NCBI RefSeq assembly: GCF_056712565.1
Contig: NZ_CM160072.1
Direction: 5' to 3' (one strand)
Length of the DNA: 64,000 nt
A model generated the notes under the pieces. That model worked only from the letters and a program-made list of their open reading frames with translations, searched no databases and was not told the origin of the DNA. Shown here one piece after another: positions 8,642 to 55,180 of the stretch (position 1 is its first letter; each line of letters opens with the position of its first letter). Both the position numbers and the translations under genes were made by a program.

Positions 8642-9673
8642 TCAACCTTTCTTCGCCTGGCGGGTCATAATGGCGCGATACACCTTGAAGCGCCCGGTTT
8701 GCGCGATCACTTCATGGAAGCCAAATGTCTCATCCAGCACGTCCGGGTAAGGCAGGAAGGCGTTCGCTACAATTCGCAACTCGCCGCCGCTGTTCAGATG
8801 ACGCACCGCGCCGCGAATCAGCGTTTGCGCGGCATCCAGGCTGGTTTGCATCCCATCGTGGAACGGCGGGTTGGAGATTATCATATCAAAGCGACCTTTC
8901 ACCTCGGAAAAGACGTTGCTGGCAAAGACTTCACCTTCAACACCGTTGGTCGCAAGTGTTGCGCGGCTGGCTTCTACCGCTGGTGCAGAAACATCACACA
9001 GAGTGAGGCGGATCTTCGGTGAATGGCGCGCAAAAGCAACGGAAAGCACTCCCGCGCCGCAGCCGACATCCAGCACTTTACCTTTCGTGTGTGGAGTTAG
9101 CGTCGAGAGCAGCAACTGACTGCCGACATCCAGACCGTCGCGGCTAAACACGCCCGGCAGTGTTTTGACCGTCAAGCCATCGACGCTGTATTCGCCCCAG
9201 AATTTATTGGCATCAAATACCGGCTGCTTTTCCAGACGACCAAAATAGAGGCCGCAGCGACGGGCGCTGTCTACCTTATTCAACGGCGCATAATCGGCCA
9301 GCATCTGCTCGGCGATGCGCACGCCGCTGCGGTTCTCGCCAACGACAAAAATATCCGTGCCCACCGGAAGCAGAGAAAGTAAATTCATCAACTGGAACTG
9401 GGCTTCCGGTTTGTTCTTCGGCCAGTAGTAGATCAGCGTATCGCAATCTGCGACATCATTCGCCGTGGCGACCAGGCTAAAACGGGCGTTATCCCCCATC
9501 TGGCGGCTTAACACCTGCCAGTGGTGGAATTGCTGGGTATGAGCACGGCTGGCCGCGGTATCTAAACGCGCGGGCAGGTCATCCTGTAAGTCTCCGGCAA
9601 ACAGAATACGGCTTTGTTCGAAATCATCACTGTGACGCAGCAAGACTTCACTTGCCGGGGTAAATGCAGACAT
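8642..9673 (-). CDS. rsmC: 16S rRNA (guanine1207-N2)-methyltransferase
   Basis: 343-aa ORF; SAM motif [13 protein letters not shown] and NPPFH catalytic motif. Confidence 0.95.
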
Positions 9674-9775: not shown

Positions 9776-10189
9776 ATGACATCCCGACGAGACTGGCAGT
9801 TACAGCAACTGGGCATTACCCAGTGGTCGCTGCGTCGCCCTGGCGCGTTGCAGGGGGAGATTGCCATTGCGATCCCGCCACACGTCCGTCTGGTGATGGT
9901 GGCAAACGATCTTCCCGCCCTGACCGATCCTCTGGTGAGCGATGTTCTGCGTGCGTTAACTGTCAGCCCCGATCAAGTGCTGCAACTGACGCCAGAAAAA
10001 ATCGCGATGCTGCCGCAAGGCAGCCGCTGCAACAGCTGGCGGTTGGGTACTGACGAACCGCTATCACTGGAAGGCGCTCAGGTGGCATCACCGGCGCTCA
10101 CCGAATTACGGGCAAACCCAACGGCACGCGCCGCGTTATGGCAACAAATTTGCACATATGAACACGATTTCTTCCCTCGAAACGACTGA
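9776..10189 (+). CDS. holD: DNA polymerase III psi subunit
   Basis: 137-aa ORF (MTSRRDWQLQQLGITQWSLRRPGALQGE...); overlaps rimI start as in K-12. Confidence 0.9.
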   Translation: MTSRRDWQLQQLGITQWSLRRPGALQGEIAIAIPPHVRLVMVANDLPALTDPLVSDVLRALTVSPDQVLQLTPEKIAMLPQGSRCNSWRLGTDEPLSLEGAQVASPALTELRANPTARAALWQQICTYEHDFFPRND

Positions 10190-10604
10190 TTTACCAGCGG
10201 CTTACCACATTGAACAACGCGCCCACGCCTTTCCGTGGAGTGAAAAAACCTTTGCCAGCAACCAGGGCGAGCGTTATCTCAACTTTCAGTTAACGCAAAA
10301 CGGCAAAATGGCGGCGTTTGCGATTACGCAAGTGGTGCTGGATGAAGCTACATTGTTCAATATTGCGGTCGATCCTGACTATCAGCGTCAGGGATTGGGA
10401 AGGGCGCTGCTGGAACATCTGATCGACGAACTGGAAAAACGCGGCGTGGCGACGCTATGGCTGGAAGTCCGTGCCTCAAATGCTGCCGCCATTGCCCTGT
10501 ACGAAAGTTTAGGCTTTAACGAGGCGACGATTCGCCGCAATTACTACCCCACCACGGACGGTCGCGAAGACGCCATCATCATGGCGTTACCAATCAGTAT
10601 GTAA
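10158..10604 (+). CDS. rimI: Ribosomal protein S18 alanine N-acetyltransferase
   Basis: 148-aa ORF; GNAT motif [22 protein letters not shown]. Confidence 0.95.
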
Positions 10605-51891: not shown

Positions 51892-52845
51892 ATGACGGAC
51901 AAATTGACCTCCCTTCGTCAGTACACCACCGTAGTGGCCGACACTGGGGACATCGCGGCAATGAAGCTGTATCAACCGCAGGATGCCACAACCAACCCTT
52001 CTCTCATTCTTAACGCAGCGCAGATTCCGGAATACCGTAAGTTGATTGATGATGCTGTCGCCTGGGCGAAACAGCAGAGCAACGATCGCGCGCAGCAGAT
52101 CGTGGACGCGACCGACAAACTGGCCGTAAATATTGGTCTGGAAATCCTGAAACTGGTTCCGGGCCGTATCTCAACTGAAGTTGATGCGCGTCTTTCCTAT
52201 GACACCGAAGCGTCAATTGCGAAAGCAAAACGCCTGATCAAACTCTACAACGATGCAGGTATTAGCAACGATCGTATTCTGATCAAACTGGCTTCTACCT
52301 GGCAGGGTATCCGTGCTGCGGAACAGCTGGAAAAAGAAGGCATCAACTGTAACCTGACCCTGCTGTTCTCCTTCGCTCAGGCTCGTGCTTGTGCGGAAGC
52401 GGGCGTGTTCCTGATCTCGCCGTTTGTTGGCCGTATTCTTGACTGGTACAAAGCGAATACCGATAAGAAAGAGTACGCTCCGGCAGAAGATCCGGGCGTG
52501 GTTTCTGTATCTGAAATCTACCAGTACTACAAAGAGCATGGTTATGAAACCGTGGTTATGGGCGCAAGCTTCCGTAACATCGGCGAAATTCTGGAACTGG
52601 CAGGCTGCGACCGTCTGACCATCGCACCGGCACTGCTGAAAGAGCTGGCGGAGAGCGAAGGGGCTATCGAACGTAAACTGTCTTACACTGGTGAAGTGAA
52701 AGCGCGTCCGGCGCGTATCACTGAGTCCGAGTTCCTGTGGCAGCACAACCAGGATCCAATGGCAGTAGATAAACTGGCGGAAGGTATCCGTAAGTTTGCT
52801 GTTGACCAGGAAAAACTGGAAAAAATGATCGGCGATCTGCTGTAA
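51892..52845 (+). CDS. talB: Transaldolase B
   Basis: ORF-track frame 51829..52845; ATG at 51892 gives [38 protein letters not shown] (317 aa). Confidence 0.97.
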
Positions 52846-52853
52846 TCATACTT

Positions 52854-52890
52854 AGCGTGACCGGGAAGTCGGTCACGCTACCTCTTCTGA
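52854..52890 (+). terminator. Possible talB terminator hairpin
   Basis: agcgtgaccg-ggaagt-cggtcacgct inverted repeat directly after the talB stop; no clear T-run. Confidence 0.4.
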
Positions 52891-52959
52891 AACCTGTCTG
52901 TCACTCCCTTCGCAGTGTATCATTCTGTTTAACGAGACTGTTTAAACGGAAAAATCTTG

Positions 52960-53547
52960 ATGAATACTTTACGTATTGGCTTAGTTTCCATCTCTGATCG
53001 CGCATCCAGCGGCGTTTATCAGGATAAAGGCATCCCTGCGCTGGAAGAATGGCTGACATCGGCGCTAACCACGCCGTTTGAACTGGAAACCCGCTTAATC
53101 CCCGATGAGCAGGCGATCATCGAGCAAACGTTGTGTGAGCTGGTGGATGAAATGAGTTGCCATCTGGTGCTCACCACGGGCGGAACTGGCCCGGCGCGTC
53201 GTGACGTAACGCCCGATGCGACGCTGGCAGTAGCGGACCGCGAGATGCCAGGCTTTGGTGAACAGATGCGCCAGATCAGCCTGCATTTTGTACCAACTGC
53301 GATCCTTTCGCGTCAGGTGGGGGTGATTCGCAAACAGGCGCTGATCCTTAACTTACCCGGTCAACCGAAGTCTATTAAAGAGACGCTGGAAGGTGTGAAG
53401 GACGCTGAGGGTAACGTTGTGGTGCACGGTATTTTTGCCAGCGTACCGTACTGCATTCAGTTGCTGGAAGGGCCATACGTTGAAACGGCACCGGAAGTGG
53501 TTGCAGCATTCAGACCGAAGAGTGCAAGACGCGAAGTTAGCGAATAA
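52960..53547 (+). CDS. mog: Molybdopterin adenylyltransferase
   Basis: ORF-track frame 52957..53547; ATG at 52960 gives MNTLRIGLVSISDRASSGVYQDKGIPALEEWL (195 aa). Confidence 0.95.
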   Translation: MNTLRIGLVSISDRASSGVYQDKGIPALEEWLTSALTTPFELETRLIPDEQAIIEQTLCELVDEMSCHLVLTTGGTGPARRDVTPDATLAVADREMPGFGEQMRQISLHFVPTAILSRQVGVIRKQALILNLPGQPKSIKETLEGVKDAEGNVVVHGIFASVPYCIQLLEGPYVETAPEVVAAFRPKSARREVSE

Positions 53548-53552
53548 AAAAA

Positions 53553-53570
53553 TCCCCCCAAGCGGGGGGA
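53553..53570. terminator. G/C-run hairpin after mog, flanked by an A7 run (bidirectional terminator candidate)
   Basis: aaaaaaa-tcccccc-aagc-gggggga: hairpin preceded by an A-tract on the plus strand, which is a T-tract after the stem when read on the minus strand. Confidence 0.5.
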
Positions 53571-53594
53571 TCAGACTGATGACAAACGCAAAAC

Positions 53595-53694
53595 TGCCTG
53601 ATGCGCTACGCTTATCAGGCCTACGATCTTCTTGCAATATATTGAATTTGCACGATTTTGTAGGCCGGATAAGGCGTTCACGCCGCATCCGGCA
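53595..53694. repeat. REP/BIME element pair between mog and satP
   Basis: ctgcctgatgcgctacgcttatcaggcctac and gtaggccggataaggcgttcacgccgcatccggca, canonical REP palindromes. Confidence 0.7.
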
Positions 53695-53751
53695 TAAACA
53701 AAGCGCACGTTGTTAACAATCTTATCCCTTCGAGCGGGGGGAGCTTAACAA

Positions 53752-54318
53752 TTAGTGAGACTCACCAATCGGCAGAACGGTGCGACCAAACTGCTCGTTC
53801 AGCACTTCACCCATCGCCAGATAGATTGCACTGGCACCGCAGATAAGACCAATCCAGCCGGCAAAGTGGATGATCGCGGCGTTACCGGCAATGTTACCGA
53901 TCGCCAGCAGGGCAAACAGCACGGTCAGGCTAAAGAAAACGAATTGCAGAACGCGTGCGCCTTTCAGCGTGCCGAAGAACATAAACAGCGTAAATATGCC
54001 CCACAGACCCAGGTAGACACCAAGGAACTGTGCATTTGGCGCATCGGTCAGCCCCAGTTTCGGCATCAGCAGAATTGCAACCAGCGTCAGCCAGAAAGAA
54101 CCGTAAGAGGTGAATGCGGTTAAACCGAAAGTGTTGCCTTTTTTGTACTCCAGCAGACCGGCAAAAATTTGCGCGATGCCGCCGTAGAAAATGCCCATGG
54201 CAAGAATAATACCGTCCAGAGCAAAATAACCCACGTTGTGCAGGTTAAGCAGAATGGTGGTCATGCCGAAGCCCATCAGGCCCAGCGGTGCCGGATTAGC
54301 CAACTTAGTGTTGCCCAT
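53752..54318 (-). CDS. satP: Succinate-acetate/proton symporter (GPR1/FUN34/YaaH family)
   Basis: 188-aa hydrophobic ORF MGNTKLANPAPLGLMGFGMTTILLNLHNVGYF... Confidence 0.93.
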   Translation of the reverse strand: MGNTKLANPAPLGLMGFGMTTILLNLHNVGYFALDGIILAMGIFYGGIAQIFAGLLEYKKGNTFGLTAFTSYGSFWLTLVAILLMPKLGLTDAPNAQFLGVYLGLWGIFTLFMFFGTLKGARVLQFVFFSLTVLFALLAIGNIAGNAAIIHFAGWIGLICGASAIYLAMGEVLNEQFGRTVLPIGESH

Positions 54319-54466
54319 AATTCCTCAAAAATCATCATCGAATGAATGGTGAAATAATTTCCCTGAATAACTGTAGTGTTTTCAGGGCGCGGCATAATAA
54401 TCAGCCAGTGGGGCAGTGTCTACGATCTTTTGAGGGGAAAATGAAAATTTTCCCCGGTTTCCGGTA

Positions 54467-55180
54467 TCAGACCTGAGTGGCGCTAACCATCCGGCGCAGG
54501 CAGGCGATTTGCAGTACGGCTGGAATTGTCACGCGATAGGCACTGCCGCTGACCGCTTTAACCCCATTTAATGCTGCGCCCACAGGGCCTCCCAGACCCG
54601 CGCCGCGCAGCAAACCATGCCCAAGCACGCTCATTGCTGCGTGGGTGCGTAAAATGCGGGTCAATTGGCTGGAAAGCAAATGCGACACACCTTTTGCCAA
54701 TAATTTGTCTTTCATCAGCAGCGGCAGCAGCTCTTCCAGCTCATTCACCCTGGCATCGACCGCGTGCAGAAACTCCTGCTTATGTTCCTCGTCCATTTTC
54801 TTCCAGGTATTACGCAGAAATTGTTCCAGTAACTGTTGCTCAATTTCAAACGTAGACATCTCTTTGTCGGCTTTCAGCTTCAATCGCTTTGAAACATCGA
54901 GCAAAATGGCGCGATACAATTTACCGTGTCCGCGCAGTTTGTTGGCGATACTATCGCCACCAAAATGCTGTAATTCTCCGGCAATCAGCTGCCAGTTGCG
55001 GCGGTGTCGCTCGGGATGTCCTTCCATCGATTTAAACAGTTCGTTGCGCATCAGTACGCTGGAGAGGCGAGTTTTGCCTTTTTCATTATGGGTGAGCAGC
55101 CGGGCGAAATTTGCCAACTGTTCCTCACTACAATGCTGGAGAAAATCCAGATCTGAATCATTCAGGTAATTAACATTCAT
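54467..55180 (-). CDS. yaaW: UPF0174-family protein YaaW
   Basis: 237-aa ORF MNVNYLNDSDLDFLQHCSEEQLANFARLLTHNEKGK... Confidence 0.88.
   Translation of the reverse strand: MNVNYLNDSDLDFLQHCSEEQLANFARLLTHNEKGKTRLSSVLMRNELFKSMEGHPERHRRNWQLIAGELQHFGGDSIANKLRGHGKLYRAILLDVSKRLKLKADKEMSTFEIEQQLLEQFLRNTWKKMDEEHKQEFLHAVDARVNELEELLPLLMKDKLLAKGVSHLLSSQLTRILRTHAAMSVLGHGLLRGAGLGGPVGAALNGVKAVSGSAYRVTIPAVLQIACLRRMVSATQV

Follow-up and report, generated by a model that had tools for sequence, protein, structure and literature searches.

A hairpin with a one-sided U tract between the convergent genes mog and satP of Escherichia coli

Results

Genes and sequence elements at the mog-satP junction

The window analyzed here, a 64,000-nt stretch of contig NZ_CM160072.1 (NCBI RefSeq assembly GCF_056712565.1), is 100% identical to E. 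coli ATCC 11775/DSM 30083 in the region considered and represents an ATCC 11775-like E. coli of phylogroup B2. The gene order is tal(+), mog(+), satP(−), yaaW(−), yaaI(−), and dnaK(+), and the spacer between the convergent genes mog and satP measures 204 bp versus 34 bp in K-12. The spacer contains a hairpin with a C6/G6 stem, a BIME-1/RIP element, and a degenerate second copy of the hairpin; we refer to the two hairpin copies as L and R (Table 1). A consensus scan returned a candidate σ70 promoter for satP in the yaaW-satP spacer; it is weak, and σ70-like sites are no more numerous in the region than expected by chance. During these analyses, we also noted that RefSeq/PGAP names the 237-aa yaaW product (54467-55180, minus strand) "msyB, acidic protein MsyB" in ATCC 11775, UTI89, and CFT073. 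Because E. coli MsyB is a different protein of 124 aa, this label looks like a naming error.

Table 1. Features of the mog-satP region, in window coordinates
Feature	Position	Strand	Sequence or description	Basis
mog CDS	52960-53547	+	molybdopterin adenylyltransferase	ORF list; RefSeq annotation of ATCC 11775 record
mog stop codon	53545-53547	+	TAA
A7 tract	53546-53552	+	U7 on minus-strand RNA, directly 3' of the hairpin	sequence; tail score
Hairpin copy L	53551-53572	−	GAUCCCCCC-GCUU-GGGGGGAUU, then U-run
C6 of L	53554-53559
Loop of L	53560-53563		AAGC
G6 of L	53564-53569
BIME-1/RIP element	53573-53722		150 bp	K-12 alignment; inverted repeats; likeness to dppA-dppB
REP of BIME-1	53595-53624
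Inverted REP of BIME-1	53660-53699
Hairpin copy R, degenerate	53724-53742	+	AUCCCUUC-GAGC-GGGGGGA; sequence ATCCCTTCGAGCGGGGGGA
satP CDS	53752-54318	−	acetate/succinate uptake transporter	ORF list; RefSeq annotation
Candidate satP σ70 promoter	54394-54422	−	TAGACA-17-TATTAT, 10/12	consensus scan; lies in yaaW-satP spacer

Positions 53545 to 53572 read TAAAAAAA TCCCCCC AAGC GGGGGGA TC or, in full, TAA AAAAA TCCCCCC AAGC GGGGGGA TC. The first-pass annotation, which had reported a G6/C6 hairpin with an A7 tract after mog, was thus correct in both its description and its coordinates. The A7 run and the TAA stop codon of mog overlap by two A, and the C6/G6 stem, with its six G-C pairs and 4-nt loop, is lengthened by U-A and A-U pairs. 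In plus-strand RNA, AUCCCCCC pairs with GGGGGGAU around AAGC (8 bp, −16.1 kcal/mol), and in minus-strand RNA, GAUCCCCCC pairs with GGGGGGAUU (9 bp, −16.7 to −17.2 kcal/mol); in K-12, the minus-strand pairing reaches 11 bp (−19.1). Compared with dinucleotide shuffles, the hairpin has a z score of about −3 to −3.5. A single match to CCCCCC-N3-8-GGGGGG is present in the 64-kb window, while 100 shuffles yielded no match, and R is the only further copy of the hairpin in the window. A scan of positions 52800 to 54600 against Rfam returned nothing credible on the hairpin; whalefall-1 (17 bits) and RAGATH-25 (14.6 bits) fell far short of their gathering scores. The Rfam families ES036/CssrF and naRNA4 were rejected as identities of the hairpin because both matches fall in the BIME. 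In a literature search with the hairpin sequence, the sole match was a mogA knockout primer; standard mog deletion primers contain the hairpin.

Terminator polarity of the two strands

E. coli Rho-independent terminators consist of a GC-rich stem-loop and a U tract of 7 to 8 nt. In agreement with the proposal in the first-pass annotation that the minus strand reads as a hairpin followed by a U-run, the RNA transcribed leftward from satP carries a 9-bp stem with six G-C pairs and a loop of 4 nt (criterion, a GC-rich stem of at least 5 bp with a short loop), followed directly by the U7 tract (UUUUUUUAUUCG). This hairpin lies past the end of satP, and the sequence in between consists only of the BIME and the R copy, with no gene. 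On the plus strand, the stem begins 4 nt past the mog stop codon and is followed by UCAGACUGAUGAC, in which there is no U tract.

To compare the strands quantitatively, we used a TransTermHP-style tail score, which is calculated on the 15 nt after the stem and was ranked among all 15-mers of the window. The minus-strand tail (UUUUUAUUCGCUAAC) scored −5.1 and was in the top 0.06%, while the plus-strand tail (AGACUGAUGACAAAC), with 3 U in 15 nt, scored −1.63 and was ordinary (71st percentile). The orthologous hairpin of K-12, in which the plus-strand tail is CUCAAAACAAUUAGU, displayed the same asymmetry (−5.48 on the minus strand versus −1.96 on the plus strand). In a consensus terminator scan, the hairpin was the best site of the region and was recovered on the minus strand only (9 pairs, 6 GC, tail TTTTTATTCG), the plus strand remaining unflagged; the scan is a loose one and was not enriched overall, with 6 sites versus 4.4 expected by chance. 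Because the minus-strand hairpin is followed by U7, these sequence features identify it as a predicted canonical Rho-independent terminator for transcription in the satP direction. By the same features, it does not qualify as a canonical terminator in the mog direction. Among the elements of the spacer, only hairpin L has terminator polarity.

Transcript 3' ends at the hairpin in K-12

All transcript 3' ends considered here are from K-12, in which the junction is BIME-free. Term-seq identified a plus-strand 3' end at 9920(+), which is classified as "primary" for mog and as antisense to satP (Adams et al. 2021, eLife, PMC7815308, supplementary file 1). This end, with 1,107 reads, was listed for growth in LB at an OD of 0.4 only (Adams et al. 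2021, PMC7815308). Based on the printed flank, it corresponds to GGGGGGAUCUC^, i.e., it is located 4 nt beyond the stem of the K-12 ortholog. The curated K-12 Term-seq lists (LB at OD 0.4, LB at OD 2.0, and M63) contain no minus-strand end at 9893-9897, and the SMRT-Cappable-seq supplements make no mention of mog/satP. The mapping of 3' ends on both strands, suggested as a check in the first-pass annotation, therefore places a transcript end at the hairpin in the mog direction and lists none in the satP direction; the outcome named there as a refutation, a lack of transcript ends on both strands, did not occur. Since no minus-strand end is listed, leftward termination, which that annotation had proposed for satP/yaaW, is predicted from the sequence.

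The sole satP-strand end listed is internal to the ORF, at 10394(−), with 23,469 reads in LB at OD 0.4 and 40,654 reads in LB at OD 2.0. It is located ∼100 nt into satP and corresponds to a hairpin and U-run at 54247-54227 of the window. The satP-internal hairpin itself (54227-54247, minus strand) reads UAACCUGCACAACGUGGGUUAUUUUG followed by UUUU and has a folding energy of −10 kcal/mol and a z score of −1.3. The end at 10394(−) may represent an attenuator, a stable 5' fragment, or a small RNA. If most satP transcripts end at 10394(−), few would reach the terminator, which could explain the absence of a minus-strand signal at the hairpin.

With respect to Rho, the bicyclomycin data set (Adams et al. 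2021, supplementary file 2) contains no Rho-termination region antisense to satP, so a route to the mog 3' end by Rho termination and subsequent trimming has no direct support. The C-over-G bias downstream of the hairpin is mild, with a GC skew of −0.1 to −0.15. A strong Rho-dependent region is located just inside mog in K-12, at 9369(+), with a Rho score of 13.2 (Adams et al. 2021). Upstream of mog, the 3' hairpin of talB (52853-52880, plus strand; AGCGUGACCGGGAAGUCGGUCACGCU; 12 bp, −21 kcal/mol, z score −4.4) has no clean U tract (ACCUCUUCUG) and nonetheless bears a strong K-12 Term-seq end at 9230(+) with 16,186 reads. Given the Rho region inside mog, much of the talB-derived transcription that enters mog may be stopped there by Rho.

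A BIME-1 element and a second hairpin copy lengthen the spacer

BIME-1/RIP elements consist of two inverted REPs around a linker with an IHF site, and REPs can act as 3'-UTR stabilizers or attenuators. The element in the window aligns end to end, with 92% identity, with the BIME-1 between dppA and dppB of K-12, and its REP and inverted REP are separated by a linker (Table 1). The homology to the dppA-dppB BIME-1 spans 53573 to 53722 only, leaving hairpin L outside the repeat unit. Compared to K-12, the spacer of the window has an extra 172 bp, which are accounted for by the 150-bp BIME-1 unit and the R copy, and the distance from the satP stop codon to hairpin L is 179 nt in the window and 7 to 10 nt in K-12. 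R is a direct repeat of L with 16 of 19 identical positions (L repeat, 53552-53570). It folds as plus-strand RNA (−9.3 kcal/mol, with two G·U pairs) and barely as minus-strand RNA (−4.4 kcal/mol).

The Rfam match to ES036/CssrF (53617-53659, minus strand; 50.6 bits versus a gathering score of 37.6) lies exactly on the linker between the REPs. Because this above-gathering match coincides with the linker, the ES036 (CssrF) family appears to model the BIME-1 linker repeat. The naRNA4 match is on a REP of the BIME and is subthreshold. The linker also contains an IHF-like site at 53635-53647 with one mismatch to the consensus; matches with one mismatch occur at chance frequency in the window, and we did not accept this site as evidence by itself.

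Long and short alleles of the junction

Of 5,426 complete E. coli genomes, 466 carry the long allele; almost all of these are at least 99% identical to the window, and they include UTI89, CFT073, and ATCC 11775. The short allele, with one hairpin and no BIME, is present in ∼90% of E. coli genomes, including K-12, O157, and OV24, the last of which does not differ from the window in its Mog and SatP proteins. In K-12, the spacer reads AAAAA-TCCCCCC-GAGC-GGGGGGA-TCTCAAAACAA, and the stem-loop and A run make up ∼27 of its 34 bp. The hairpin-BIME-hairpin arrangement was also found in E. albertii and in the divergent "E. coli" SCPM-O-B-8794; the R copy of E. albertii pairs perfectly over 10 bp (GAGCUCCCCC-UGAGC-GGGGGAGCUC), and its L copy forms a weaker stem.

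In the K-12 junction, the left part of L runs directly into the right flank of R (GGGGGGATCT joined to CAAAACAATTAG). This form of the junction fits a short allele generated by deletion between L and R and equally an empty site that existed before an insertion that duplicated ∼20 bp; the distribution in the outgroups tends to favor an ancestral long allele and a later deletion. As a control, we analyzed the BIME-1 between dppA and dppB, which is also polymorphic (present in 3,249 of the 5,426 genomes). Its flanks repeat ATAC only, and a ∼20-bp flanking duplication was consequently rejected as a general signature of BIME-1. For mobilization of the IS200/IS605 type (RAYT), a long flanking duplication is not expected (PMC2817692). 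In the window, the end of satP contains two synonymous changes in the last codons (53755-53760; GTGAGACTC versus GTGGGATTC in K-12, OV24, and E. albertii), and the stretch from R to the satP stop codon (53743-53751) is altered in the lineage of the window. These changes hint at a recombination tract or locally faster change beside the BIME.

Conservation of the hairpin

Among the E. coli genomes sampled, the hairpin and the A7 tract are nearly invariant in all identity bands. The variants seen are a loop of GAGC versus AAGC and lengths of C5 or G5, which may be sequencing artifacts. We also searched for Mog in 100,044 species genomes, with one genome per species, and 80 loci were returned. Among these loci, only those of Escherichia (E. 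albertii and "E. coli" SCPM-O-B-8794) combine adjacent mog and satP with this hairpin, and in most Enterobacterales a gene for an MFS transporter is located between mog and satP. In Enterobacter, Kluyvera, Yersinia, Serratia, Pantoea, Pectobacterium, and others, we observed a conserved motif, TTTACGGTATAGTAATTTTT...TTTACA, ∼70 to 95 nt past the mog stop codon and upstream of this transporter gene, which is absent in Escherichia; the motif is probably a promoter or operator of the transporter gene.

In Providencia and Moellerella, mog and satP are convergent, and an unrelated strong hairpin (−17 to −20 kcal/mol) is present at the same position. In Providencia vermicola (locus positions 2094-2121) and Moellerella wisconsensis (locus positions 2090-2121), it reads AAUCAGGUGA...UCACCUGAUU, and in Moellerella, U5 follows on the satP strand. 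This looks like a functional analogy, i.e., an independent solution at the same junction, and not like homology.

Discussion

A proposed shared 3'-end element with different roles in the two directions

Based on the structure of the hairpin, the asymmetric position of the U/A tract, the conservation in E. coli, and the plus-strand 3' end in K-12, we propose, with a probability of roughly 0.7, that the hairpin is a single 3'-end element shared by the convergent genes mog and satP that acts differently in the two directions. Both termination on the minus strand and the route to the plus-strand end are steps that we infer. In the leftward direction, RNA polymerase that has transcribed satP, and possibly yaaW, would continue through the G/C stem and then U7; the hairpin would form behind a weak rU:dA hybrid, and the transcript would be released inside the U run that overlaps the mog stop codon, thereby keeping antisense transcription out of mog. 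In the rightward direction, the stem would form 4 nt past the mog stop codon with no U tract to follow and would be a poor intrinsic terminator. Here, the stem most likely defines and stabilizes the 3' end of the mog mRNA: polymerases would run on and be halted by Rho on the untranslated RNA antisense to satP, by the REP/BIME, or by head-on collision, and the RNA would next be shortened by 3'-5' exonucleases until only a few nucleotides are left beyond the stem. Because the U tract is missing and the stem begins so close to the stop codon (4 nt), the plus-strand end is more likely to be processed and protected, or dependent on collision, than to result from classical termination. Along the same lines, Li et al. 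(PMC4824070) found that the ribosome represses an intrinsic terminator almost completely when it is located a few base pairs past the stop codon of a gene. The suggestion in the first-pass annotation that the hairpin could also terminate mog transcription thus holds in that a K-12 transcript ends 4 nt past the stem, and fails in that this side lacks the hallmark of a canonical terminator.

The two strands resemble different known systems. On the minus strand, the hairpin is like E. coli intrinsic terminators, with a 9-bp stem with six G-C pairs, a 4-nt loop, and an immediate U7-A-UU past a stop codon; it is unlike them in having a plus strand with no U tract and, in the window, in being located 179 nt from the satP stop codon behind a BIME. 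The plus strand resembles the protective stem-loops described by Dar and Sorek (2018) in having a stable stem with no U tract, a 3' end a few nucleotides beyond it, and a mild excess of C over G downstream. Such stem-loops are the exonuclease-trimmed, resistant ends of transcripts that are terminated by Rho downstream (Dar and Sorek 2018, PMC6061677). Unlike at those ends, no bicyclomycin-sensitive region is listed downstream of mog, and the stem is preceded by an A tract, which here belongs to the terminator on the opposite strand; A tracts are typical of intrinsic terminators and not of Rho-dependent ends (Dar and Sorek 2018, PMC6061677). The window is like BIME-1/RIP loci in that the 150 bp adjoining the hairpin are such an element, and it is unlike them in that L is not part of the repeat unit and in that the 19-nt flanking hairpin duplication is absent at dppA-dppB.

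Alternative explanations

Ju, Li, and Liu reportedly described in 2019 overlapping bidirectional terminators between convergent E. coli genes at 306 sites. The hairpin could be a true terminator of this kind, in which the U-less mog side is stopped by head-on or trailing polymerase collisions positioned by the stem. It does resemble them in being a stem-loop between convergent genes, filling most of the 34-bp spacer of K-12, with an A tract on one side and a K-12 3' end directly past the stem on the U-less strand (Ju 2019; Wang et al. 2022 preprint). Bidirectional terminators are reported to "not resemble intrinsic terminators," to be Rho-independent, and to need the stem-loop for the positioning of collisions (Wang et al. 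2022 preprint), and the lack of a listed Rho region downstream of mog is consistent with this. Several observations argue against such a terminator. The hairpin is asymmetric, with A7 upstream and no U run downstream, and, of the two opposing 3' ends expected at such a site, a single one is on record, the K-12 lists having no minus-strand end with which the mog end could overlap. Moreover, collisions are reported to be more efficient in highly expressed gene pairs, whereas the 3'-end signal of mog is low and full-length satP transcription is seemingly scarce, and in the strain of the window the BIME puts 179 nt between the hairpin and satP. We therefore consider this explanation unlikely.

The polymorphism of the junction raises two further possibilities. 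The hairpin might have no function at the transcript level and be a by-product of a mobile BIME-1, as a duplicated target or flank, or a chance palindrome. In the window, the hairpin is indeed one of two direct repeats that bracket BIME-1, with copy R decaying. Against this, the hairpin and its A7/U7 tract are intact in the BIME-free genomes, including K-12, that make up ∼90% of E. coli; the hairpin is outside the 150-bp repeat unit; a transcript 3' end maps to it; the control BIME-1 at dppA-dppB has no such flanking hairpins; and C6...G6 is far beyond chance. This explanation is already largely refuted, and we regard it as extremely improbable. Alternatively, the main role could be at the level of DNA, with the G6/C6 palindrome being a cruciform- or slippage-prone hot spot for insertion or recombination at which a BIME is gained or lost. 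The BIME and one hairpin copy are exactly what distinguishes the long allele from the short one, with the K-12 junction composed of parts of L and R, and variants in homopolymer length (C5 and G5) occur. Such a role leaves the conserved one-sided A7/U7 tract and the mapped RNA 3' end unexplained, and it is compatible with terminator function rather than an alternative to it; as the main role, we consider it very unlikely.

A related idea, which we put forward as a tentative possibility with the odds against it, is that the hairpin is a preferred site for the landing or rearrangement of BIME-1 that was copied when the element arrived, giving a flanking repeat of 19 to 22 bp, and that the element can be deleted precisely by recombination between L and R. 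If true, natural lineages would switch back and forth between mog-satP spacers of 34 and 204 bp, with differing 3' UTRs of satP and mog. The BIME-1 bracketed by duplicated terminator hairpins, together with the two-allele polymorphism, is the only mildly unusual point of the locus.

Implications

Returning to the hairpin as a shared 3'-end element, its consequences should differ between the two alleles. Because BIME-1 places the terminator 179 nt from satP in the strain of the window, satP mRNA that reaches the terminator should bear a REP-containing 3' UTR of ∼200 nt, and the terminator should be beyond the reach of ribosomes at the satP stop codon, compared with a distance of 7 to 10 nt in K-12. 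Transcripts reading through from mog would in turn encounter both REPs and the R stem, and the steady-state 3' end may come to lie at any of these. REPs are common between convergent genes, being found in ∼30% of convergent pairs, and an association of REPs in this position with higher expression of the two genes has been reported (Harris et al. 2026 preprint).

The hairpin is a real feature of a known kind, it is in line with known biology throughout, and a published table already contains the plus-strand end of its K-12 ortholog. As a shared element, it would fix where the satP transcription unit stops and where the mog mRNA has its 3' end and would shield mog from antisense transcription, with little import beyond correct annotation. 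It provides a clean natural case of one hairpin that reads as a canonical terminator on one strand and as an end-capping stem on the other, and the alleles with and without BIME-1 could be a ready-made test of the effects of REPs on convergent 3' UTRs.
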